Assembly: GCA_030372965.1 (NCBI GenBank)
Contig: JAUCQC010000228.1
Span: forward strand, 15,203-79,202
Source: a bacterium
GTDB taxonomy: Bacteria; Zhuqueibacterota; QNDG01; DTFT01
Reading direction: 5' to 3'
DNA length: 64,000 bases
Part shown: positions 5,203-48,381 of the stretch, one piece after another
Layout: each line of letters begins with the position of its first letter
How positions within the stretch are numbered: the first letter of the stretch is position 1
Notes under the pieces: generated by a model
What the model was told of the DNA's origin: nothing
What the model saw: only the letters and a program-made list of their open reading frames with translations
The model's database searches: none
Program-made: the position numbers and the translations under genes

Positions 5203-6189
5203 ATGAGCCCGGGTGAGTCCCATGCTCCCGAAGGAGGAGCCTTGCCGCGTCCGGAGCCTCAGGAAACCATCCTGGTGGTCGACGACAAGGCCAACAATCG
5301 CCTTCTGCTTCAAACCTATCTGGAATCGGCCGGATACCGCGTCCGTCTGGCGGCAAGCGGGGAAGAAGCGCTCCGCTGCATCACGGAGAACGCGCCGTCC
5401 CTCGTTCTGCTGGACGTGATGCTTCCGGGAATCAACGGGTACGAGGTGTGCCGGATCGTGAAACTATCAAAATCCCGCAGGGGCCTGCCCGTGGTGCTGG
5501 TCACGGCGCTCCAGGGCGAGGAGGAGCGCGTAAAGGGGATCGAGGCCGGCGCCGACGATTTCATCGGCCGCCCGATCCATCGGCTTGAACTGCTCACCCG
5601 TGTTCGGTCGCTGCTGCGGATCCGGCGTCTGCACGACGAGTTGGAGCAGAAAATCCTCGAGTTGGAGAAGGCCAAGATCCAGCTGCAGCAGCTGGCGGTC
5701 ACGGACGGCCTGACGGGCCTGTACAATTATCAGTACTTCAAACACAAACTGCAGACCGAGGTCGCCCGATCGCGGCGGCATGGCCTGCCGGTTTCCCTGC
5801 TGATGATGGACATCGATCACTTTAAAATGTACAACGATCATTTCGGGCACCCGTTGGGCGACCGGGTTCTGCGCCGCTTCGGAAACCTGCTGTTTGAGCA
5901 TGTGCGGCAGATCGACATCCTGTCCCGGTACGGGGGCGAGGAATTCGCCCTGATCCTGCCGGGCACTTCCAAGGACGCCTCGATGATCGTGGCCGAAAAG
6001 CTGAGGACCCTGATCGAGAAATCCTATTTCCCGCTGTCGGAAAAGCTGCCGTTCGGCAGGGTGACCATGAGCGTGGGAGCCGCCTGTTTTCCGGACGATG
6101 CCGCGAACGAGGAGGAACTGGTCCGGAAATCCGACGAAGCCCTGTACCGCGCGAAAAAAGAGGGCCGGAACCGGTCCGTTCCCGCATAG
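5203..6189 (+). CDS. Response regulator with GGDEF output (diguanylate cyclase, PleD/WspR-like)
   Basis: REC domain (ILVVDD, LVLLDVMLPG, VVLVTA), a coiled linker, GGDEF with an active-type GGEEF, and an RQID I-site five residues upstream. The conserved receiver Lys is Arg (GADDFIGRPI). Confidence 0.9.
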   Translation: MSPGESHAPEGGALPRPEPQETILVVDDKANNRLLLQTYLESAGYRVRLAASGEEALRCITENAPSLVLLDVMLPGINGYEVCRIVKLSKSRRGLPVVLVTALQGEEERVKGIEAGADDFIGRPIHRLELLTRVRSLLRIRRLHDELEQKILELEKAKIQLQQLAVTDGLTGLYNYQYFKHKLQTEVARSRRHGLPVSLLMMDIDHFKMYNDHFGHPLGDRVLRRFGNLLFEHVRQIDILSRYGGEEFALILPGTSKDASMIVAEKLRTLIEKSYFPLSEKLPFGRVTMSVGAACFPDDAANEEELVRKSDEALYRAKKEGRNRSVPA

Positions 6190-6190
6190 G

Positions 6191-8329
6191 ATGCATGTGA
6201 TGCCAGCCGCTTCCGCCAAGCCGAAATTCAACCGGTCCACTTTCGTCAAGCTCTGGATTCTTCTGTTCGCGGCCTCCGCACTCTCGGTCGTCGTGTTCAG
6301 GCTTGCCCAAAACGGAACCGCTTTCGGCAGGGGGGATGCCTGCGTCCGTGATCTGCTGAAATCCAGAGCCGAGTCCCTCTCCCGAATCGCCGAGGAGGCC
6401 ATGCTCGGGGATGTCCGGGACCTCTGGATGTCCGATTCTCCGGATCCGGACCAGGGCTCCTCATTTTTCACGGATTGGGAGACCCGGTACCCGTCGATCG
6501 TGACGGCGGATCTGTGGCGGACCGACGGTTCCGCCCCCGACCGCTGGATGCAGAACGCGCTTGCCGGCCGGATCCGGTCCGGCGTCGCCGACAACGACTC
6601 CCGAAACCGTCTGGACGCCTTCCTGTCGCCGAAACGCGTGTCCTGGACGCTCCGCAGGCAGACGCCGTACCAGGAAACGGCTTTCATCCTCAATCCGTTT
6701 CAAGGGTCCCTCGTGGGGATTCTGATCCCGCGGGAGACCCGGAAAAGCCGGTCGATTCTCTGGATACGCGTCATTGTCGCCGATCCGTCCGAGGCCGTCC
6801 GTGCGCGGCTGGATCCGGGGGAGACCGTCCGCCTGGTGGACGGAAACGCCACACTGATCGAATGGGAAATGCCGGCTTCGGGAACGCGCAACCGCGCCGG
6901 TTCGTCTCCGGAAACGTGGCGGGCATCCGCGCCGATGTCGATACTTTCCTGGCGGATCGAGATTCAGCGTCAGACCACAGCCGCCGTCCCGCCCGGAGGT
7001 TACGCCCGACCGCTGATTTTCGGCCTTCTGCTCCTTCTCCTGATCTCCGGGGCGGCCGCGTTCACGGGCGTCTGGTGGATCGAGCGTCCGTTCGAGCGGT
7101 TGATGTCCTCCGCCATTGAAATCGGAAGGGGCAATTTCGGAATCCGGATTTCCGATCAGAAGAACCGTTCCATGCACCGTCTCGCCAAACTGCTCAACTA
7201 CATGGCGACTGAGATGGACCATCTCCAGCGGATGAACGTGAGCGCGATCATCAACGAGAAGAACAAGACTGAAATCATGCTCCGGAACATCGCGGATGGC
7301 GTGCTCGTGCTGGACGAGGAGGGCCGGATCGTGCTGATGAACGAGGCAGCCTCGCGGTGGCTGCGTCTCAGCGAATCCGCGGTTCTCGGCAGGCCCTTCC
7401 AGGAGTGCATCCGCATCCGTCCCCTCACGACGCTGCTACGCGACGTTCTCAGGGACAAGCCGAACGCCTCCGATGAATTCGCGATCAAGGCCTCCGAAGA
7501 CCGCCAGACCCTGGTGCTCTCGGCGAACGCGGCCCGCGTCACCAATCGCGACGGACGGAATGTGGGAGCGGTCACCGTCCTGAGGGATGTGACCAAGGAG
7601 AAGGAAGCCGACCGCATCAAAACGGAACTCGTCTCCATGGTCGCGCACGAGCTGAAATCGCCGTTGACTTCCATCTATGGGTTCACGGAACTGCTGCTGG
7701 ATTCCGAGAGTAAAAACAAGAAGGCGGCCGAATACGCGCAGGTCATCCAGTCCGAAGTGAGCCGGCTGACCGACTTTGTCGACAAGTTCCTCAGCCTCTC
7801 CCGGCTGGAATCCGGGAAAATAAGGATCCAGATGGATCCGTTCGACCTCCGTTCTGTCGTCGAGAAAAGCGTGTCGGTGCTTCAGGGCCAGGCCGCCCGC
7901 AAGGATATCCTGATCGCGCTTCAACTCCCCGACTCCCTGCCGCTCACGGCGGGGGATCCGACACTGATCGAGCAGGTGCTGGTGAATCTCATCGGTAACG
8001 CCATCAAATACAGCCCGAGCCACTCCAAGATCGGCATCGAGACGACGGTCGGGTCGAAGGACGTGTCCATCCATGTCATCGACAACGGGTACGGCATCCC
8101 CAAGGAAGCCCTGCCGAGGATATTCGACAAGTTCTACCGCGTCGCGGAGATGCGCGAAAGCGGGGAAACGGAGGGATCGGGTCTGGGACTGGCCCTGGTC
8201 AAGGAAATCGTCGAAAAGCACGGCGGGTTCATCAAGGTGAAGAGCAAGCTGGGCGTGGGTTCCGTGTTTTCCTTCTCCCTGCTGCAGGCCGGGATGTTCC
8301 TGCGGCCGGGAAGCGGAGAAAACCGGTGA
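6191..8329 (+). CDS. Membrane sensor histidine kinase (extracytoplasmic sensor, HAMP, PAS, HisKA, HATPase_c)
   Basis: TM segment after the start, a second TM plus HAMP-like region around LIFGLLLLLLISG, PAS (NIADGVLVLDEEGRI), H-box VAHELKSPLTSIYGF, N-box NLIGNAIKYSP, and G-boxes DNGYGIP and GSGLGLAL. The ATG at 6191 lies 2 nt after the upstream stop. Confidence 0.9.
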   Translation: MHVMPAASAKPKFNRSTFVKLWILLFAASALSVVVFRLAQNGTAFGRGDACVRDLLKSRAESLSRIAEEAMLGDVRDLWMSDSPDPDQGSSFFTDWETRYPSIVTADLWRTDGSAPDRWMQNALAGRIRSGVADNDSRNRLDAFLSPKRVSWTLRRQTPYQETAFILNPFQGSLVGILIPRETRKSRSILWIRVIVADPSEAVRARLDPGETVRLVDGNATLIEWEMPASGTRNRAGSSPETWRASAPMSILSWRIEIQRQTTAAVPPGGYARPLIFGLLLLLLISGAAAFTGVWWIERPFERLMSSAIEIGRGNFGIRISDQKNRSMHRLAKLLNYMATEMDHLQRMNVSAIINEKNKTEIMLRNIADGVLVLDEEGRIVLMNEAASRWLRLSESAVLGRPFQECIRIRPLTTLLRDVLRDKPNASDEFAIKASEDRQTLVLSANAARVTNRDGRNVGAVTVLRDVTKEKEADRIKTELVSMVAHELKSPLTSIYGFTELLLDSESKNKKAAEYAQVIQSEVSRLTDFVDKFLSLSRLESGKIRIQMDPFDLRSVVEKSVSVLQGQAARKDILIALQLPDSLPLTAGDPTLIEQVLVNLIGNAIKYSPSHSKIGIETTVGSKDVSIHVIDNGYGIPKEALPRIFDKFYRVAEMRESGETEGSGLGLALVKEIVEKHGGFIKVKSKLGVGSVFSFSLLQAGMFLRPGSGENR

Positions 8330-10248
8330 AGGCGGGTTCCCGCAGACAGACGGTGCTGCTTCTCGACCCGGACGGCGCATCGGAAGCCGTCCTCCTCCGG
8401 GCCCTGGAGGGGACGGACACGGCCATCCGGCGCGCCCTTTCCCTCGAAGAGGCCGGCCGCCTGGCCGGCGAACTGCGTCCCGAACTGATCGTCGCCGAAT
8501 TCGACCCCGATTCCGCCGAGGGACTCCGCCTGTTCCGGATGATTCTCGAAGACCGGGAGTACCGCGACCGGTTTCCCGTGCCGTTCGTGATGATTTCGGA
8601 TCCGCCGACGCGCGAGCGACACGCGGAGGAGCTTTTTCCGCTCGGTCTCATGGGGTGGATCGTCCGTCCCCTGGATCCGGCGACGGTGCGCGAGGTTTTC
8701 CACAACTGGCTCTGGCTGCATGAGGCTTTCCGCAAAGCCCAGCGGTTGAAGCAGGAAGTCCGGAAATCCGAAGTCCGCTACCGGGATCTGCTGGAGAACG
8801 CCTCCGATTTCATTTTCACGCTGGATTCGGAAGGCCGTTTTCTGTATCTCAACAACCGCTTCAAATCCCTGACCGGATTCGAGAAAGAGGAATGGCTGGG
8901 CCGTCCGTTTCCCGATCTCTTCGAGGCCGAAGACCGGAAGACCGCCCGGGAACACTACGAACAGACCCACCAGGGAAGGTCCAGGGTATTCGAGGCCCAT
9001 GTCCTCCACAAGACCACCGCTCCCAACGTGCTGTCGATCAGCCTGACACCCATCGTCGAAGTCGCCTCCGTCACGGGAACCATGGGCATCGGACGGGACA
9101 TCCTCGAGCAGAAACGCATGGAACGGGAAATCCTCGATCTTGAAAATTTCAACGCGAGCATCATCGAAAGCATGGAGGCCGGTCTTCTGACCGTCGACCT
9201 CGACGGCATCATCACCTCCCTCAACACAGGAGGCCAGAATATACTGGAACGGGTGTCCGAGGAGGTTCTCGGGCGTCCCATCGGCGAGGTTCTGCCGCCC
9301 GCGGAGGCGGAAGCGCTTCTCTCCCCGGGCTCCGCGGACGACGGACTGCCGTCGCGCAGGGAGATGGAGCTGACCCTCAAGTCCGGACGCAAGGCCGCCA
9401 TCGGTTACACCGTGACCGACCGGGTGGACAACCAGAGGCGGAAAGTGGGGACGATTGTCTCCTTCCGCGACATCACCCTGATCAAACAGATGCAGAACGA
9501 GGTCATCCGGATGGACCGGCTGGCTTCGCTCGGCGTCCTGGCCTCCGGCATCGCGCATGAAATCAAGAATCCACTGGCCGGCATCAAGTCGCTGGCCCAG
9601 GCCTGCGAGGAGGAGTTCGAGGGGGAAGACCCTCGCCGTGAGTATCTGGCCCGGATCATCCGCCAGGTCAACCGCATGGACGACCTGCTGCGGACGTTCT
9701 TCGCCTACGCCAAGCCCAAACCGCCTGACCGGAAACCCGTTCCCCTCAGCGACATCATCCGGGAAGTCGGTCACCTGATGAATCGCAAGATGGACAAGGC
9801 GGGCATCCGCTATTCCGTGGAACTGGCCGACGTTCTACCGCCGGTGGTCGTCGACGGGCCGCAGATCCAGCAGGTTTTCCTGAACCTGATGCTCAACGCC
9901 GTGGACGCCATGCCCGGAGGGGGGACGCTGGCGATCCGCGCCGCGGTCGCGGGGCCGGACTTCAGGGGCCTGATGCGCCGGCGCACGCCGGACCCGCGTC
10001 CGGATCCGTCGCGGAAAGGGGCGTCCTACGTCGAAATCCGGATCTGCGATTCGGGCACCGGCATTCCGGAGGACAAACTGGAAACGATTTTCGACCCGTT
10101 CTTCACCACCAAGCCCGGCGGCCTCGGCCTCGGGCTGTCCATCGTCTACCGCATCATCGCCGAACACCAGGGGGACATCCGAGTCAAGAGCCGTCCCGAT
10201 CACGGGACGGAATTCAGCATTTATTTACCCACGGGAGATCCTTCATGA
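8326..10248 (+). CDS. Cytoplasmic histidine kinase with an N-terminal degenerate receiver-like domain and two PAS domains (NtrB/AtoS-like)
   Basis: The GTG start overlaps the upstream stop (GTGA). Receiver-like N-terminus (VLLLDPDG, LIVAEFD, FVMISD, Lys replaced by Arg in GWIVRPLD), PAS repeats, H-box GIAHEIKNPLAGI, N-box NLMLNAVDAM, and DSGTGIP/GGLGLGLS. Confidence 0.9.
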   Translation: MKAGSRRQTVLLLDPDGASEAVLLRALEGTDTAIRRALSLEEAGRLAGELRPELIVAEFDPDSAEGLRLFRMILEDREYRDRFPVPFVMISDPPTRERHAEELFPLGLMGWIVRPLDPATVREVFHNWLWLHEAFRKAQRLKQEVRKSEVRYRDLLENASDFIFTLDSEGRFLYLNNRFKSLTGFEKEEWLGRPFPDLFEAEDRKTAREHYEQTHQGRSRVFEAHVLHKTTAPNVLSISLTPIVEVASVTGTMGIGRDILEQKRMEREILDLENFNASIIESMEAGLLTVDLDGIITSLNTGGQNILERVSEEVLGRPIGEVLPPAEAEALLSPGSADDGLPSRREMELTLKSGRKAAIGYTVTDRVDNQRRKVGTIVSFRDITLIKQMQNEVIRMDRLASLGVLASGIAHEIKNPLAGIKSLAQACEEEFEGEDPRREYLARIIRQVNRMDDLLRTFFAYAKPKPPDRKPVPLSDIIREVGHLMNRKMDKAGIRYSVELADVLPPVVVDGPQIQQVFLNLMLNAVDAMPGGGTLAIRAAVAGPDFRGLMRRRTPDPRPDPSRKGASYVEIRICDSGTGIPEDKLETIFDPFFTTKPGGLGLGLSIVYRIIAEHQGDIRVKSRPDHGTEFSIYLPTGDPS

Positions 10249-11603
10249 ATTCCGCCAACATACTCGTCATCGAGGACAACGAAGACCTTTCGTTCACCAT
10301 ATCGAAGGTTCTGCAGAAGGAGGGGTTCAAGCCGTTCACGGCGAAGTCCGGCGAAGAAGGCCTTCTTCTGTTCCGGAAGGAGATCGTGGACCTGCTCCTG
10401 CTTGATCTGAAGCTCCCGAAGATGAACGGGCTCGAGGTGCTCTCCCGCGTCAAGGAGATGGACCCGGACCTTGCCGTCATCATTATGACGGCCTCCACCG
10501 ACCTCAAGCCCGCCATCGAAGCCAAGAAACGGGGCGCCACTGATTATCTCATGAAGCCGTTCGAACTGGACGAGATGAAACTGGTCGTCAGGAAGGCGCT
10601 GGAAATGCACCAGCTCAAGATCGAGGTGGCCCGTCTCCGGCGTGACCACGTCAAGGCGAATCCCCACGACACGCTGTACGGTGAAAGCCCGAGAATCAAG
10701 GAGATCCGCAAGCTCATCCAGATCGTGTCGGAGACCCCCCGAACGTCCGTTCTCATCCAGGGCGAAAGCGGCACGGGCAAGGAACTCGTCTCGAACGCCA
10801 TTCACACGGCCAGCAACCGGGCCGGCAAGCCGTACATCAAGATCAACTGCAGTGCCATTCCCGACAACCTGCTCGAAAGCGAGCTTTTCGGCCACGAGAA
10901 AGGCGCCTTCACGGACGCGAAACTCATGAAGAAGGGCCTTTTTGAGCTCGCCAACGGCGGCACGATTTTTCTCGATGAAATTTCCAGCATGAAGCTCGGA
11001 CTGCAGCCGAAGATTCTGCGCGTGCTCGAGACGCAGACGTTCCGCCGCATCGGCGGCATCGGCGACATCAAGATCGATATCCGGGTCATTGCCGCGTCCA
11101 ATACCGACCTTGGCGAACTGGTGAAGCTCAAGGAATTCCGGGACGATCTGTACTACCGCCTCAAAGTCATGGAAATCGACCTGCCGCCGCTCCGGGACCG
11201 CAAGGAAGACATCATGCTTCTCGCGAAGCTCTTCCTTCAGGAATTCAACAAGGAATTCAACAAGCGGGTTCAGAAATTCCACGCGAAGACCGAGGAACTT
11301 CTGACGGCCTACCATTGGCCGGGGAACGTCCGGGAGCTCAAAAACGTCATCGAACGCGCCGTGATTCTCACTCAGGACGACACCCTTCACCCGGATCACC
11401 TGCCGATCGAACTGAAGGAGGAGAAGCGCGCCTTCATGCCGGAAAGGGCCGCCATGGGCAGGATGTCTCTGGAGGAAATGGAAAAAATGCACATCGACCA
11501 GGTCCTGCAATCCGTCAAGGGCAACAAGTCCCAGGCCGCCAAAATACTGAACATCTCAAGATCGACGCTTCGGGAAAAACTGAAGGCCTATCAGATCGCT
11601 TGA
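10245..11603 (+). CDS. Sigma-54-dependent response regulator (NtrC/AtoC family bacterial enhancer-binding protein)
   Basis: ATGA overlap with the kinase gene. REC (ILVIEDNEDL, LLLLDLKLP, IIMTAS, YLMKPF), AAA+ (GESGTGKE, the GAFTDA sigma-54 contact loop, RVIAASN, ELFGHEKGAF), and a C-terminal Fis-type HTH (AAKILNISRSTLREKLK). Confidence 0.95.
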   Translation: MNSANILVIEDNEDLSFTISKVLQKEGFKPFTAKSGEEGLLLFRKEIVDLLLLDLKLPKMNGLEVLSRVKEMDPDLAVIIMTASTDLKPAIEAKKRGATDYLMKPFELDEMKLVVRKALEMHQLKIEVARLRRDHVKANPHDTLYGESPRIKEIRKLIQIVSETPRTSVLIQGESGTGKELVSNAIHTASNRAGKPYIKINCSAIPDNLLESELFGHEKGAFTDAKLMKKGLFELANGGTIFLDEISSMKLGLQPKILRVLETQTFRRIGGIGDIKIDIRVIAASNTDLGELVKLKEFRDDLYYRLKVMEIDLPPLRDRKEDIMLLAKLFLQEFNKEFNKRVQKFHAKTEELLTAYHWPGNVRELKNVIERAVILTQDDTLHPDHLPIELKEEKRAFMPERAAMGRMSLEEMEKMHIDQVLQSVKGNKSQAAKILNISRSTLREKLKAYQIA

Positions 11604-11726: not shown

Positions 11727-11741
11727 TGGTATGTATTTTGC
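11727..11741 (+). promoter_or_regulatory. Sigma-54 (-24/-12) promoter TGGTATGTATTTTGC
   Basis: GG (11728-29) and GC (11740-41) are separated by exactly 10 nt. It matches 9 of the 12 defined positions of TGGCACG-N4-TTGCW. It is preceded by an AT-rich stretch and sits directly downstream of an enhancer-binding-protein gene. Confidence 0.65.
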
Positions 11742-11787
11742 CCGACAAGGTGTCAGCAAATCACATCCGTACGAGGGAACAGACTTT

Positions 11788-12189
11788 TTGAGCACCTGGA
11801 AAAAAAGAGTGTTGATCGTGGACGATGAAGAGGATTTGACCTGGAGCATCGTCCGGGGCCTTTCGAAAGAACGGTCGGGCCTCGAAGTGCATTGCGCCAG
11901 TTCGGGTTCGGGCGCCCTGGATCTGATGGACCGCCATTCGTACGATCTGCTGGTCACGGACGTGCGAATGCCCGGTCTGGACGGAAAGGGACTCGTGCAA
12001 CGGGCGCGGTGCAAGCACCCCGGCCTGAGAATCATCCTGATGACCGCTTTTCCGTCTCCGGATGTACGGGAATTTGCGGAACGCTTCCGCGTGTCGGAAA
12101 CCGTGGAAAAGCCTTTTGAAATGGGGGAGTTCCGGCGCCTGATCGGGAGTCATCTGGAGACGGATTCCATTCCTTCCGGGACCGCCTGA
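11788..12189 (+). CDS. Single-domain CheY-like response regulator receiver
   Basis: All canonical receiver residues are present (VLIVDDEED, LLVTDVRMPG, IILMTAF, VEKPF). I prefer the TTG at 11788 (GAGGGA 9 nt upstream) because the tracked ATG at 11731 lies inside the sigma-54 promoter. A GTG at 11809 is an alternative. Confidence 0.85.
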   Translation: MSTWKKRVLIVDDEEDLTWSIVRGLSKERSGLEVHCASSGSGALDLMDRHSYDLLVTDVRMPGLDGKGLVQRARCKHPGLRIILMTAFPSPDVREFAERFRVSETVEKPFEMGEFRRLIGSHLETDSIPSGTA

Positions 12190-12232
12190 CCGGGAGTGTC
12201 CGTCTAAAACCGCCTTGGGGAGAAACGAATTC

Positions 12233-13819
12233 ATGAAAAACGTTCCCGCATCATCCGCCGCTCCGGACATACCGCCGGAACGGATGGATGTCTATCAGAC
12301 GTCCATCCGGGTTCTGGGGGCCGGAGGCGCCGGAAACAACACCATCGACCGCCTCCAGAGACTGGGCATCCGCAATGTGGAAACCATCGCGCTCAATACG
12401 GACGCGCAGCAGCTGCTCGAGACGCAAACCCAAAGGCGAATCCTGATCGGAAAGAACATCACGGCCGGGCTCGGATCCGGCGGGGACCCGCAGATCGGTG
12501 AGCGATCGGCCGAGGAGAATCATGCCGCGATACGATCCGCGATCGAGGGCGCGGATCTGCTGTTCATCACCGGCGGCCTCGGAGGGGGCACCGCCACGGG
12601 CTCCATCCCGATCATCGGGCGGGTGGCCCGGGAACAGGGCACCCTGACGATGGCCATCGTCACCATGCCCTTTTCAGAGGAAGGCATCGTGCGGTGGGAA
12701 AACGCCCAGATCGGACTCGAGAAAATCCGCAAGAACGTGGACACCGTGATCGTCCTGCGCAACGACAAGCTCCACGACCTGTATCCGGACACCACGCTGC
12801 TCGATGCCTTCCGCAAAGCCGACGAAATTCTCATCCACAGCCTCATCGGGCTGTCCGACCTGGTGCAGAAACGGGGCCTGATCAATCTCGATTTCGCCGA
12901 TATCCGTTCGGTTCTCACGGACGGGCCCAATGCCGTGGTCGGGCTGGGGGAAAGCAGTTCTGAGAACAGGGCCGAGGAAGCCGCGCGCCGCGCCTTCAGC
13001 CATCCCATGATGGACTTCGACATCACGGGCGCCCAGAGCGCCATGGTGCACATCACCGGCGGCCCCGACCTGACGCTGAAGGAATCCCGGCAGGTGGTTC
13101 AGGCGATCTCCCGCAAGCTGGACCCGGGAGCGAAAATCATCTGGGGCGTGACCATCGACAAATCGATCAAGGGATCGCTGAAAGTTCTGATCATCGTGAC
13201 CGGCCTCGTCGAAAAAGAGGATGATTTCCCGAAGCGTCTCGACGAGTCGGAAACCGTTCCCCGGACGTCCGTGGAGACGGAAGCGACCGCCCTCGGTCCG
13301 CTTCAGCCGATCCGCGACGACGGCAAGAGCATTTTCGACATCAAGGAATCCATCATGGCTTCCGGCGAGGAGACCACCACGCTGACGAAGCCCAGAAAGG
13401 CCGTCGCGCAGTCCTCGCAGATATTTTACACCATATTCGAGGAAGAGGCCGCCGCGGATTTGAAGCGCTTCGACCGGGCCGTCCATCTGCTCCGGGAGAC
13501 GCCGGACAGCCGCAAGGCCCTGCTGGACGCCCTGCAGTCCTGCAAAATGCTGTTCGCGTCCGCCCAGATGTTCGGATTCGACGAAACCTGCCAGCTTCTC
13601 GGCGCGGTTCAGGACATCCTGCAGAGCGTTCACGCGAAGGAAATCCAGATGAATCCGAGAATCCTGGACTCCATTACGCTGGCGATCGAGATGGTCGTGG
13701 ATCTGATGGAAAACCGCTGCGACGGGCGGGGCGAAACCGGGTACATTGTGGACCGGCTTCGTGATCTGAGGAGCGAGCAGATGGAATCCACGGCTCCCGC
13801 GGACGGAAACAAGCCTTGA
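12233..13819 (+). CDS. FtsZ-family GTPase fused to a C-terminal His-less HPt-like (CheA P1-like) domain
   Basis: FtsZ core: GAGGAGNNT (T1), GGLGGGTATGS (tubulin signature), NLDFADIRSV (T7), IIWGVTID and KVLIIVTG. It is followed by an acidic linker and then about 100 aa that align with CheA P1. ATG at 12233, with GGGGAGA 9 nt upstream. Confidence 0.85.
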   Translation: MKNVPASSAAPDIPPERMDVYQTSIRVLGAGGAGNNTIDRLQRLGIRNVETIALNTDAQQLLETQTQRRILIGKNITAGLGSGGDPQIGERSAEENHAAIRSAIEGADLLFITGGLGGGTATGSIPIIGRVAREQGTLTMAIVTMPFSEEGIVRWENAQIGLEKIRKNVDTVIVLRNDKLHDLYPDTTLLDAFRKADEILIHSLIGLSDLVQKRGLINLDFADIRSVLTDGPNAVVGLGESSSENRAEEAARRAFSHPMMDFDITGAQSAMVHITGGPDLTLKESRQVVQAISRKLDPGAKIIWGVTIDKSIKGSLKVLIIVTGLVEKEDDFPKRLDESETVPRTSVETEATALGPLQPIRDDGKSIFDIKESIMASGEETTTLTKPRKAVAQSSQIFYTIFEEEAAADLKRFDRAVHLLRETPDSRKALLDALQSCKMLFASAQMFGFDETCQLLGAVQDILQSVHAKEIQMNPRILDSITLAIEMVVDLMENRCDGRGETGYIVDRLRDLRSEQMESTAPADGNKP

Positions 13820-13826
13820 ATCTGAT

Positions 13827-13886
13827 CGCTCGCTTACCCCGCCGCTTGCAGTGGGGTAAGCGAGCGAATAGAATATGTTTTTTTTT
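13827..13886 (+). terminator. Rho-independent terminator after the FtsZ-like gene
   Basis: 14-bp perfect stem CGCTCGCTTACCCC / GGGGTAAGCGAGCG (13827-13840 and 13853-13866), followed by a run of nine T (13878-13886). Confidence 0.8.
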
Positions 13887-22480: not shown

Positions 22481-22765
22481 ATGATGGATCTTCAGTTCAT
22501 CGACATGCTGGAAGAGAAGGTGAACCGGATGGTTCAGCAGCTCGGACAGCTCAAGACGGAGAACCGCGAACTCCGGATGCGGAACCAGGAATTGCAGGCC
22601 ATCCTGGAGGATAAGGAACGCGCGGTGTACACCCTGCGGACCGAACTCGACCAGTCCAGGGCCGTCCAGGGGGAAATCGAGAATTATCGCAAGAGCCAGG
22701 ACCGGATACGGTCCAAAGTTGAGACACTGCTGGAGAAGCTGAAGGATTTCGAGAATATCCCCTGA
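22481..22765 (+). CDS. Small coiled-coil protein, ZapB-like (putative division-associated)
   Basis: 94 aa, heptad-rich (LEEKVNRMVQQLGQLKTENRELRMRNQELQ), located directly upstream of zapA. Confidence 0.45.
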   Translation: MMDLQFIDMLEEKVNRMVQQLGQLKTENRELRMRNQELQAILEDKERAVYTLRTELDQSRAVQGEIENYRKSQDRIRSKVETLLEKLKDFENIP

Positions 22766-22837
22766 CGCGCCGTCCGCGCGTCTGGGGCGCAGACCCGGTC
22801 ACGTTGAAGGAATTTGAAATCGAACGGGGTCGTTCCG

Positions 22838-23140
22838 ATGGAATCTGACAAAAACGTTCTGAAAGTCAGAATCTACGGCGCCGAATACTTGATCCGAGGA
22901 CAGGCGGACGTCAATTACATGCAGTCGGTTGCTGAATACGTGAATGACAAGATGCTTGAAATCGATCAGACGATTCGGACCGATTCCTCGCTCAAAGTGG
23001 CCATACTCGCCACACTGAACATCACCGACGAGCTGTTCCGTGAGCGGTCGGAATCGGAAGCCATTCGGAACGAACTCGAAAATAAAATACGGGAGCTGAA
23101 TCTTCTGATCGACCGGCAGTTGTCCGCATCGGACGTGTGA
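22838..23140 (+). CDS. zapA: Cell division protein ZapA
   Basis: VRIYGAEYLIRG..., VAILATLNITDEL, and a C-terminal coiled coil. I prefer the ATG at 22838 over the tracked TTG at 22814. Confidence 0.8.
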   Translation: MESDKNVLKVRIYGAEYLIRGQADVNYMQSVAEYVNDKMLEIDQTIRTDSSLKVAILATLNITDELFRERSESEAIRNELENKIRELNLLIDRQLSASDV

Positions 23141-47627: not shown

Positions 47628-48311
47628 TCAGGCGAAACGGTATCCCATCCCGTGTATGGTCTGAATGTACCGGGAGGGGTTGGTTTTCTCTCCGAGTTTC
47701 TCTCTGAGGCGCTTGACATGGACGTCCACGGTTCTGTCCGTGACGTAGACATTCTCTCCCCAGACCTTTCCGAGAATTTCCTCCCGTGAAAAAATCGTGT
47801 CCCGGTGCGTGACCAGGAGGTACAGGAGCTTGAACTGGGTGTAGGTGAGGTCCACCGGCCTGCCGTTCTTCATGACCTCATGGGTCTCGAGATTGATTTC
47901 AATGTCCTTGATCTGGATGGTGTTCGGCGACGTGTCGACCAGATCGATGCGCCGGATCAGCGCCTTGACCTTGGCCACCAGTTCCTCGAAGGCTTCGGTC
48001 CCGGACAGGCATTCATCCGCGCCGTTTTCAAGCGCGCTGATGCGGTCCGACGATTTTCGGCTTCCGGTCAGCACGACCAGAGCGGTTTTCCGGTTCGTTT
48101 CCCGCAATAAACGGTTGATTTCGTCGATTTTACCGTGCGTGGCGGCGTAATCAACCACAAACGCACGCGGATTCTCCTTTTTTAAAACCGGCAGCGCATC
48201 CTGATCCGGCGGAACTGTGACCACCCTGAATCCCGCGGAAGAGAAATGTCTTTCGATCTCCTGTTGGACGCTGAGATCGGGCGTGGCGACGAGTACTTTG
48301 GGTGCGATCAT
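47628..48311 (-). CDS. OmpR-family winged-helix regulator with an atypical (probably non-phosphorylated) receiver domain
   Basis: The C-terminal trans_reg_C domain is clear (LTYTQFKLLYLLVTH, VWGENVYVTDRTVDVHVKRLREKL, IQTIHGMGYRF). The receiver lacks the DD acidic pair (KVLVATPDLS) and the conserved Lys (GADECLSGTEAF). Confidence 0.85.
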   Translation of the reverse strand: MIAPKVLVATPDLSVQQEIERHFSSAGFRVVTVPPDQDALPVLKKENPRAFVVDYAATHGKIDEINRLLRETNRKTALVVLTGSRKSSDRISALENGADECLSGTEAFEELVAKVKALIRRIDLVDTSPNTIQIKDIEINLETHEVMKNGRPVDLTYTQFKLLYLLVTHRDTIFSREEILGKVWGENVYVTDRTVDVHVKRLREKLGEKTNPSRYIQTIHGMGYRFA

Positions 48312-48365: not shown

Positions 48366-48381
48366 TGCAAGTTCCATGCCA
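48366..48381 (-). promoter_or_regulatory. Sigma-54 (-24/-12) promoter TGGCATGGAACTTGCA
   Basis: On the - strand it matches 11 of the 12 defined positions of TGGCACG-N4-TTGCW with GG-N10-GC spacing. It is 55 nt upstream of the regulator ATG (48311). Confidence 0.7.

Follow-up and report, generated by a model that had tools for sequence, protein, structure and literature searches.

The DNA analyzed here is a window of 64,000 nucleotides from a bacterium (GTDB lineage Bacteria; Zhuqueibacterota; QNDG01; DTFT01; assembly GCA_030372965.1, contig JAUCQC010000228.1, positions 15,203 to 79,202 of the forward strand), and coordinates given without a locus label refer to this window. It contains a gene for an FtsZ-type protein that ends in a relative of the P1 histidine phosphotransfer (HPt) domain of the kinase CheA, with lysine at the position of the phosphorylated histidine. 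Sequence comparison and structure prediction divide the protein into three parts, an FtsZ-type GTPase core, a disordered linker, and a degenerate HPt domain of the CheA P1 type, referred to below as the pseudo-HPt. The gene is predicted to be the second cistron of a two-gene sigma-54 operon, behind a gene for a CheY-like receiver (REC). The best explanation for this arrangement, to which we give an even chance, is that the pseudo-HPt serves to dock the co-transcribed receiver and thereby links it to FtsZ, with the neighboring kinases acting both through an NtrC-type activator and through the receiver. Close relatives of the fusion lie in loci that are called KSB1-type here, and a second, more divergent subfamily of fusions was also found.

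The original prediction, which was made by a model from the letters of the sequence, had aligned the C-terminal domain with CheA P1/HPt over positions 13421-13714 (residues 403-500 of the open reading frame 12215..13819, the translation of which is the string that it quoted), and the resemblance proved to be homology well beyond chance in sequence, profile, and fold. Searches of PDB sequences with phmmer matched the domain to the P1 domains of Thermotoga maritima CheA (2ld6, E 1.6e-4; 1tqg, E 6.2e-4) and of Salmonella CheA (1i5n, E 7.7e-3), and the NCBIfam model CheA_Halo was matched over its positions 8-125 with E 7.3e-7. When a profile of 25 orthologues was compared by hhalign with 15 canonical N-terminal P1 domains of CheA, which had been aligned independently, the probability was 99.6% and E was 7.7e-25 over 119 columns. 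Two AlphaFold2 (AF2) models were made, the first from 11 sequences and the second, of the whole protein, from 108 sequences; the predicted five-helix bundle superposes on CheA P1, and the domain has a per-residue confidence (pLDDT) of 90-96 in the 108-sequence model. The nine top Foldseek matches in the PDB were all CheA P1, among them 1tqg (T. maritima P1; TM 0.88, root-mean-square deviation 1.2 Å) and 3kyi, the Rhodobacter sphaeroides CheA3 P1 bound to CheY6 (TM 0.83, 2.2 Å). Taken by descent and by predicted fold, the pseudo-HPt belongs to the HPt superfamily.

The alignment with CheA P1 thus stood over the range first proposed, and only its 3′ end had to be moved, since the domain reaches to about position 13777 and includes a fifth helix and the stretch D-G-x-G-E-T-G-Y-I-V-D-R-L that comes after helix D. 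No other part of the C-terminal region is as conserved as this loop and helix-E motif (DGRGETGYIVDRL), which is without a counterpart in CheA P1. Nine of its residues are invariant in the 25 orthologues (D503, G504, G506, E507, T508, G509, V512, R514, and L515), including three glycines. In terms of mean pairwise distance, the pseudo-HPt (0.46) varies less than the FtsZ core (0.52) and the receiver (0.75), and a comparison of the first two values indicates that purifying selection is stronger on the pseudo-HPt than on the FtsZ core. The possibility that the domain is a chance match of helical bundles, or a decaying relic without function, draws on the Pfam Hpt model, which was matched with E 0.0095 and 16.6 bits and thus under its gathering score of 24.6 bits, and on the designed four-helix bundles that are also found among the Foldseek matches. 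It is nevertheless effectively excluded, with a vanishingly small probability, by the hhalign result, by the nine CheA P1 structures at the top of the structural matches, by the slow evolution of the domain relative to the FtsZ core, and by its presence in 117 of the 119 closest relatives of that core.

As had been proposed, the residue at the phospho-histidine position is a lysine: every alignment places Lys444 there, in helix B (context ...LQSCKMLFASAQMFGF..., 'SCKML'). The rest of the HxxKG motif is lost as well, since Lys444 is followed by M-L-F-A, and Phe447 and Ala448 take the positions of Lys51 and Gly52 of CheA, in agreement with the F-A that had been aligned with K-G. The column holds lysine in 33 of 35 orthologues, with one arginine and one glutamate, and never histidine. 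The same is seen in a larger set, the 117 pseudo-HPt carriers among the 119 closest FtsZ-core relatives in a database of 5.8 billion proteins, in which lysine occurs 96 times, serine nine times, arginine and glutamine three times each, isoleucine and valine twice each, glutamate and alanine once each, and histidine not at all (0/117). As a control, the same hidden Markov model (HMM) was applied to the HPt domains of unrelated CheA/ChpA-like proteins, and the column was histidine in 367 of 412 of them. The other outcome that had been raised, that a proper alignment might bring H424 or H473 to the phospho-site, was not borne out, because neither residue aligns with it. No conserved histidine was found elsewhere in the domain among the 25 orthologues, and His424 (kept in 17 of 25, 68%), His473 (mostly glutamine), and a histidine at position 447 (7 of 25) were rejected as alternative phospho-sites because none is conserved.

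In CheA P1, Glu70 hydrogen-bonds the phospho-histidine. The equivalent position is occupied by glutamate or aspartate in 27 of 35 orthologues and in 74 of the 96 lysine-bearing proteins, while the clade of the window has glutamine there (Gln466). The single lineage with glutamate at the histidine column (L020, P0252) has lysine at the Glu70 position, and this exchange of charges indicates that Lys444 would form a structural ion pair with the Glu70 equivalent across helices B and C, rather than taking part in chemistry. The idea of a direct role, in which a positive charge at this site reads the acyl-phosphate of the receiver, was downgraded on account of the S, I, V, Q, N, and T found there in the divergent subfamily and of the E/K swap, which is structural.

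With the phospho-histidine and the HxxKG motif gone and Lys444 in place, the domain should have no part in a His-Asp phosphorelay, and the prediction that it cannot relay phosphate is a sound one. The loss of the catalytic hallmark, the histidine in HxxKG, is the reason for classing the domain as a pseudo-HPt. Phosphotransfer through another residue, such as a phospho-Lys444, His424, or a histidine at +3, is also effectively excluded, although its probability is perhaps not quite as minute as that of a chance match. It could appeal to the Ser/Thr 'Xpt' domains of ChpA-type kinases (PMC12632253) and to the histidines found at positions 447 and 424 in some orthologues. However, none of the candidate residues is invariant, Lys444 gives way to R, E, or Q in some KSB1-type members, divergent members have S, I, V, A, Q, N, or T at this column, the E/K swap is structural, and the locus has no hybrid kinase that would require a relay.

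The N-terminal part of the protein is a complete FtsZ over residues 31-331 (Pfam Tubulin, E 1.9e-42; FtsZ_C, E 1.9e-30), and the full family model TIGR00065 was matched with 368.4 bits, above its cut-off of 295.2. The likely start of the gene is ATG 12233, which is preceded by GGGGAG and would give a protein of 528 residues. In a phmmer comparison with PDB sequences, FtsZ1 of Methanocaldococcus jannaschii scored 341.7 bits against the core, whereas the chains that we take to be bacterial (Staphylococcus aureus, Bacillus subtilis, and others) scored at most 272 bits; entry 9v7v (297 bits) is not counted among the latter. The higher archaeal score suggests an archaeal-type origin of the core and is no proof of it. 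Canonical FtsZ proteins have GGGTG(T/S)G in the T4 loop, N.DFAD in the T7 loop, and the motif IPN(D/E)KL. The T7 loop of the fusion, NLDFAD, is intact, and the tubulin signature in the T4 loop (12566-12586, residues 118-124) reads GGGTATG here and in the three closest relatives and GGGTGTG in all remaining orthologues. This glycine-to-alanine change lies in a GTP-binding loop and might alter the handling of the nucleotide. A further hallmark is found across the whole fusion family, in which the proline of IPN(D/E)KL is replaced by R, K, Q, or E to give (R/K/Q/E)NDKL.

The linker that follows, of about 65 residues, varies in sequence between orthologues apart from one short motif, IFDIKESI, which is nearly invariant, with I376, K377, and I380 invariant in the 25 orthologues. 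Motifs of the IFDIKES type are also present in the divergent subfamily, both in its FtsZ linkers and in its partner proteins. AF2 predicts the motif as a short helix that is not docked with confidence (pLDDT ~40-59). The canonical C-terminal peptide of FtsZ (D-I/L-P-x-F-L-R/K), which binds FtsA, ZipA, or SepF, was not found in the sequences of the fusion orthologues, and its place is taken by the IFDIKES motif together with the folded pseudo-HPt of 120 residues. The whole-protein AF2 model combines a confident core (pLDDT ~90), a disordered linker over residues ~332-397 (pLDDT below 50), and a pseudo-HPt that folds on its own; its overall score (pTM 0.59) is what is expected when two domains are untethered.

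The fusion gene lies directly downstream of the receiver gene, with -26 to +135 nucleotides between the stop codon of the receiver and the start of ftsZ in 17 loci. The sequence TGGTATGTATTTTGCC upstream of the receiver has GG at -24 and GC at -12 (TGGTATGTATTTTGC at 11727-11741) and adjoins the gene of an NtrC-type activator, and 16 of 17 orthologous loci have TGGTA(T/C)-N5-TTGC at the corresponding place between the genes. A search for sigma-70-like promoters between 11400 and 14300 gave none. Past the stop codon of ftsZ, RNA folding gave a stem-loop of 21 pairs, 17 of them contiguous in the core (-38.2 kcal/mol, z -6.3), which is followed by nine T; a simple terminator scan returned nothing after ftsZ, which we assume to be caused by the T-run starting 6 nucleotides past the stem. 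The sigma-54 promoter, the lack of a sigma-70-like promoter, and the hairpin with its T-run together point to the two-gene operon. The ATG that opens the mechanically called receiver frame (11731) falls inside the conserved promoter, and the true start is probably TTG 11788 (GAGGGA upstream), which shortens the receiver from 152 to about 133 residues.

The receiver itself seems to be a working one. Neither the equivalents of DD, D57, T87, and K109 nor the alpha1 motif DDEEDLTWSI vary among 18 orthologues, and the distance matrix of the receiver correlates best with that of kinase 2 (r 0.83), which is the probable cognate kinase. The retained phospho-acceptor residues and the distances that track kinase 2 indicate a live signaling protein. 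Orthologues of kinase 2, 47-95% identical, occupy the same position in every locus, kinase 1 is found upstream in orthologous loci as well, and the NtrC-type activator adjoins the REC-ftsZ pair upstream in the orthologues and is present in the loci of the divergent subfamily. Pfam searches of the neighboring genes found no CheA-type kinase (P4/P5) encoded nearby. In a separate observation, the first ~125 residues of kinase 2 (8326-8700) were seen to resemble a degenerate receiver (LLLDPD...IVAEFDP); Pfam detects none here, and the kinase 2 orthologues in L034, L035, and L022 do match Response_reg.

A scan of one genome per GTDB species gave 21 loci, 20 of them with the fusion and all in metagenome-assembled genomes. 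The remaining one (L021) has a weak 23-residue match beside a thrS homologue, in the same assembled genome as L018. Two loci are labelled candidate division KSB1, and the proteins carry the public names 'cell division protein FtsZ [candidate division KSB1 bacterium]' or '[bacterium]'. The gene order histidine kinase, histidine kinase, NtrC, REC, fusion, (FAD oxidase), thrS is kept wherever the flanks suffice, down to 53% identity. When 1.84 billion representative proteins were searched exhaustively with a profile, only about six clusters of the KSB1 type were obtained, and the next matches, from E 4e-20, were giant multi-HPt CheA/ChpA-like proteins, which are the best matches of the pseudo-HPt outside the family.

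The second subfamily was found by means of exhaustive search, a metagenome scan, and contig look-ups, and its proteins are 570-613 residues long and ~40-45% identical overall. A profile search of the 5.8-billion-protein database with its alignment (A3) gave one short match. The divergent operon has a promoter with the sigma-54 consensus TGGCAT-N5-TTGCA and comprises six genes in the following order: a receiver; a MinD/ParA-like ATPase; an SLT lytic transglycosylase; a protein of 700-784 residues with a C-terminal pseudo-HPt; the FtsZ~pseudo-HPt fusion; and a partner protein whose pseudo-HPt is N-terminal and which also has a (V/L)FDI(K/V)E motif and, at its C-terminus, an amphipathic helix. 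The large acidic proteins of 613-784 residues upstream of the divergent ftsZ (L023 1555-3396, L032 7646-9982, L034 7687-10038) had no Pfam match in the remainder of their length; their pseudo-HPt has tyrosine at the histidine column in L023 and L025 and retains the lysine of HxxK (ACYSLKIL). Kinases of the (REC-)PAS type and an NtrC-type activator lie upstream or downstream of the divergent operons, and three divergent receivers carry the alpha1 motif DDEEDL(T/R)WS as in the KSB1 receiver. At the end of the divergent FtsZ, in place of the DGRGETGYIVDRL motif, stands a V.D.V.YV.NLL(K/R)G peptide, preceded by a second long linker. Neither the 64-kb window nor the KSB1-type loci contained homologues of the partner proteins, and the KSB1 type resembles a pared-down form of the locus in which the receiver and FtsZ alone remain. 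As a side observation, the receivers of some divergent loci are ~230 residues long and keep DDEEDLTWSI (L028 1424-2104, L032 5145-5849, L036 5266-5961); the C-terminal part of the L028 receiver matches DUF4388 (PATAN-like), and the L032 receiver has a comparable tail.

The proposal that the domain may still bind a receiver is favored by the presence of a canonical CheY-like receiver, which is co-transcribed directly upstream of the fusion at all KSB1-type loci and is met again in the divergent operons. HPt domains have receiver domains as their universal partners. Since no CheA-type kinase is encoded nearby, the co-transcribed receiver is the most likely partner for the pseudo-HPt to dock. The kinases would phosphorylate NtrC and thereby switch on the REC-ftsZ operon, and the same kinases would phosphorylate the small receiver. 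The pseudo-HPt, having kept the generic HPt function of receiver binding, would dock the receiver onto the tail of FtsZ, and the phosphorylation state of the receiver may then control the assembly, bundling, or placement of the FtsZ polymer. FtsZ would in this way come under double control, transcriptional through NtrC and post-translational through the receiver, with both the contact between receiver and pseudo-HPt and its effect on polymerization being inferred. A more extended version is tentative: the operon may specify a self-contained, signal-induced FtsZ machine that is separate from the housekeeping divisome, is gated by the phospho-receiver, and has a core of possibly archaeal type. 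The full machine would then comprise the MinD/ParA-like ATPase, the lytic transglycosylase, three pseudo-HPt proteins, and a membrane-anchoring partner. If this is true, a tubulin-family polymer would here, for the first time, be seen to read a two-component phospho-signal directly.

Several observations weigh against docking of the receiver. The mirror-tree comparison gave no co-variation between receiver and pseudo-HPt beyond phylogeny (partial r -0.05), although this result leaves binding neither more nor less likely, since the residues of the candidate interface hardly vary. The residue at the CheA Lys51 position varies freely (L/H/Y/Q/F/G/N), which argues against a tightly constrained surface beside the former active site. 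The divergent subfamily has S, I, V, Q, A, N, or T at the histidine column, and a positive charge there is consequently no general requirement. Finally, the two extra pseudo-HPt proteins of the divergent operon and the repeated FDIKE motif could be alternative partners of the domain.

The last point leads to the main rival of receiver docking, in which the pseudo-HPt would act without the receiver, as a scaffold or tether whose binding partner, in cis or in trans, is the FDIKE motif or another pseudo-HPt. It would crosslink FtsZ filaments or anchor them to the membrane in place of the C-terminal peptide, and the two-component system would act on transcription only. The two additional proteins are indeed recognized by the pseudo-HPt HMM (E 9e-8 and 1e-7), and one of them combines the (V/L)FDI(K/V)E motif with a C-terminal amphipathic helix of the sort that is typical of membrane-targeting sequences. 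The same FDIKE-type motif in the FtsZ linkers of both subfamilies, the absence of the canonical FtsA/ZipA-binding peptide, and the missing co-evolution signal in the mirror-tree would also fit. However, the window and the KSB1-type loci are without the partner proteins and yet always keep the receiver, the IFDIKES helix is left undocked on the bundle in the AF2 model, and the single-domain receiver that is co-transcribed in both subfamilies is left unexplained. We therefore regard a receiver-independent scaffold as possible but doubtful.

Another explanation retains receiver binding and changes the partner. The pseudo-HPt could dock on the receiver of NtrC, on that of kinase 2, or on a kinase, and the FtsZ polymer would feed back on the signaling system as a decoy, a sequestering agent, or a localizer. 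Receiver domains are present in NtrC and at the N-terminus of kinase 2 in orthologous loci, in both subfamilies the fusion has kinase and NtrC genes near it, also where the small receiver gene lies further off, and plant pseudo-HPts of the AHP6 type are competitive inhibitors of a phosphorelay. Because the tightest and most conserved neighbor of the fusion is the single-domain receiver and not NtrC, feedback of this kind seems improbable to us. The features on which this analysis is based are collected in Table 1.

Table 1. Features of the receiver-ftsZ~pseudo-HPt locus, in window coordinates.
Feature	Position	Strand	Description	Basis
RR-GGDEF	5203..6189		REC-GGDEF diguanylate cyclase, directly upstream of the two kinases	
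Histidine kinase 1	6098..8329	+	PAS-HisKA-HATPase_c; first gene of the conserved regulatory module	Pfam
Histidine kinase 2	8326..10248	+	Two PAS, HisKA, HATPase_c; degenerate receiver-like N-terminus	Pfam
NtrC-type sigma-54 activator	10245..11603	+	REC, Sigma54_activat AAA+, HTH_8	Pfam
Sigma-54 (-24/-12) promoter	11727..11742	+	TGGTATGTATTTTGCC; heads the REC-ftsZ operon	Pattern match
Single-domain CheY-like receiver	11788..12189	+	Mechanical open reading frame 11731..12189	Response_reg E 1.9e-19
FtsZ~pseudo-HPt, complete open reading frame	12215..13819	+	534 residues from TTG 12215	Open reading frame list, sequence
FtsZ GTPase core	12305..13207	+	Tubulin domain residues 31-190, FtsZ_C residues 240-331	Pfam
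(R/K/Q/E)NDKL hallmark	~12755-12772		VLRNDKL here; family-wide	
Disordered C-terminal linker	13208..13423	+	Residues ~332-403	AF2 pLDDT <50
Short linear motif in linker	13331..13357	+	IFDIKESIM	
Pseudo-HPt domain	13424..13777	+	Residues ~404-521; five-helix bundle of the CheA P1 type	
Lys444 codon	13544..13546	+	AAA; phospho-His position, helix B	
Gln466 codon	13610..13612	+	CheA Glu70 equivalent; E/D in most orthologues	
Loop and helix-E motif	13721..13759	+	DGRGETGYIVDRL; invariant	25 orthologues
Probable terminator of the REC-ftsZ operon	13821..13886	+	Stem-loop 13821-13872, T9 13878-13886	

The genes downstream of the operon are an FAD-linked oxidase, thrS, infC, pheST, zapB, zapA, rny, ymdB, and proS, and no genes of the dcw cluster were found within the 64-kb window, the nearer neighbors of ftsZ being thrS-infC-pheST. 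Homologues of ZapB (22481-22765) and ZapA (22814-23140) follow pheT (Pfam E 8e-9 and 8e-18, respectively) and indicate that the organism has Z-ring accessory proteins; the two genes lie 9 kb downstream of the fusion, and L035 is arranged likewise. The REC-GGDEF gene upstream of the kinases is also kept in L035, and its position beside the kinases suggests a cyclic di-GMP output of the same signaling module. Elsewhere in the window, a perfect sigma-54 consensus, TGGCATGGAACTTGCA, was found at 48366-48381 (-), ~55 nucleotides ahead of the gene for an OmpR-type response regulator (47628..48311, -), the first in a cluster of exopolysaccharide genes (Bac_transf, epimerase, Wzz/GNVR tyrosine kinase, Wzy_C). 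Polysaccharide export genes adjoin the FtsZ system in the divergent loci L031 and L036.

FtsZ regulation is usually described in terms of protein partners that bind the short C-terminal peptide, and the influence of two-component systems on the division apparatus is ascribed mainly to transcription or to indirect factors. The exchange of this peptide for a folded domain derived from signaling, together with a live receiver that is co-transcribed under a sigma-54 activator, points to a direct physical link between phospho-signaling and a cytoskeletal polymer. The pseudo-HPt is also a natural example of an HPt domain that is without catalysis and yet under strong selection, in which the hydrogen bond between histidine and glutamate would have become an ion pair between lysine and glutamate. 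Full-text literature searches returned no account of an FtsZ-HPt fusion and nothing of relevance on FtsZ in combination with HPt, histidine phosphotransfer, KSB1, or a second FtsZ, and a survey of the FtsZ/tubulin family makes no mention of HPt or CheA (PMC9871819). Judged from the sequences compared here, an FtsZ paralogue and a pseudo-HPt scaffold are joined in an undescribed architecture inside a conserved sigma-54/two-component operon, and the fusion marks a large undescribed FtsZ clade of uncultured bacteria that is tied to two-component loci. More than 100 sequence clusters that are annotated 'cell division protein FtsZ' are unlikely to behave as canonical FtsZ. In addition, a conserved operon of REC, MinD-like, SLT, pseudo-HPt, and FtsZ proteins is hereby defined in KSB1 and related uncultured bacteria.

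Compared with FtsZ proteins, including archaeal FtsZ1 and paralogues such as FtsZm, the fusion has the full GTPase and FtsZ_C domains, the T7 loop, and the same order of parts, with a core, a disordered linker, and a binding module at the C-terminus; it differs in lying outside a dcw cluster in the window, in its dependence on sigma-54, and in the replacement of the C-terminal peptide. The pseudo-HPt shares clear homology and the five-helix architecture with CheA P1 (PF01627; 1I5N, 1TQG, 2LD6, 3KYI) and keeps the helix-A pattern F..F.EEA.E.L, the (M/F)GF turn between helices B and C, and, in most orthologues, the acid equivalent to Glu70. In contrast to CheA P1, it reads K-x-x-(variable)-A, without the phospho-histidine and HxxKG, and it is C-terminal on FtsZ, whereas P1 is N-terminal on CheA; the fusion also lacks P2-P5.

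The term pseudo-HPt is used for plant proteins of the AHP6 type, in which the histidine is replaced and which are thought to bind partners without phosphotransfer. The HPt fold and the loss of the histidine are common to these proteins and to the domain described here; however, AHP6 belongs to the Ypd1/AHP branch and not to that of CheA P1, and AHP6-type proteins are single-domain inhibitors of phosphorelays with no cytoskeletal link. A likeness is also seen with FimL and the non-phosphorylatable 'Xpt' domains of ChpA, which are HPt-like domains of the CheA type without the acceptor histidine. FimL of Pseudomonas aeruginosa has two HPt-like domains with glutamine at the acceptor site (PMC3019171), and polar localization of the CheY-like PilG needs FimV and FimL (PMC12632253). 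FimL stands alone as a scaffold in the type IV pilus/cAMP system, whereas the pseudo-HPt is fused to a tubulin-family GTPase, and the fusion gene differs further in being co-transcribed with a candidate receiver. By analogy, FimL may serve as a precedent for a pseudo-HPt that acts together with a CheY-like receiver.

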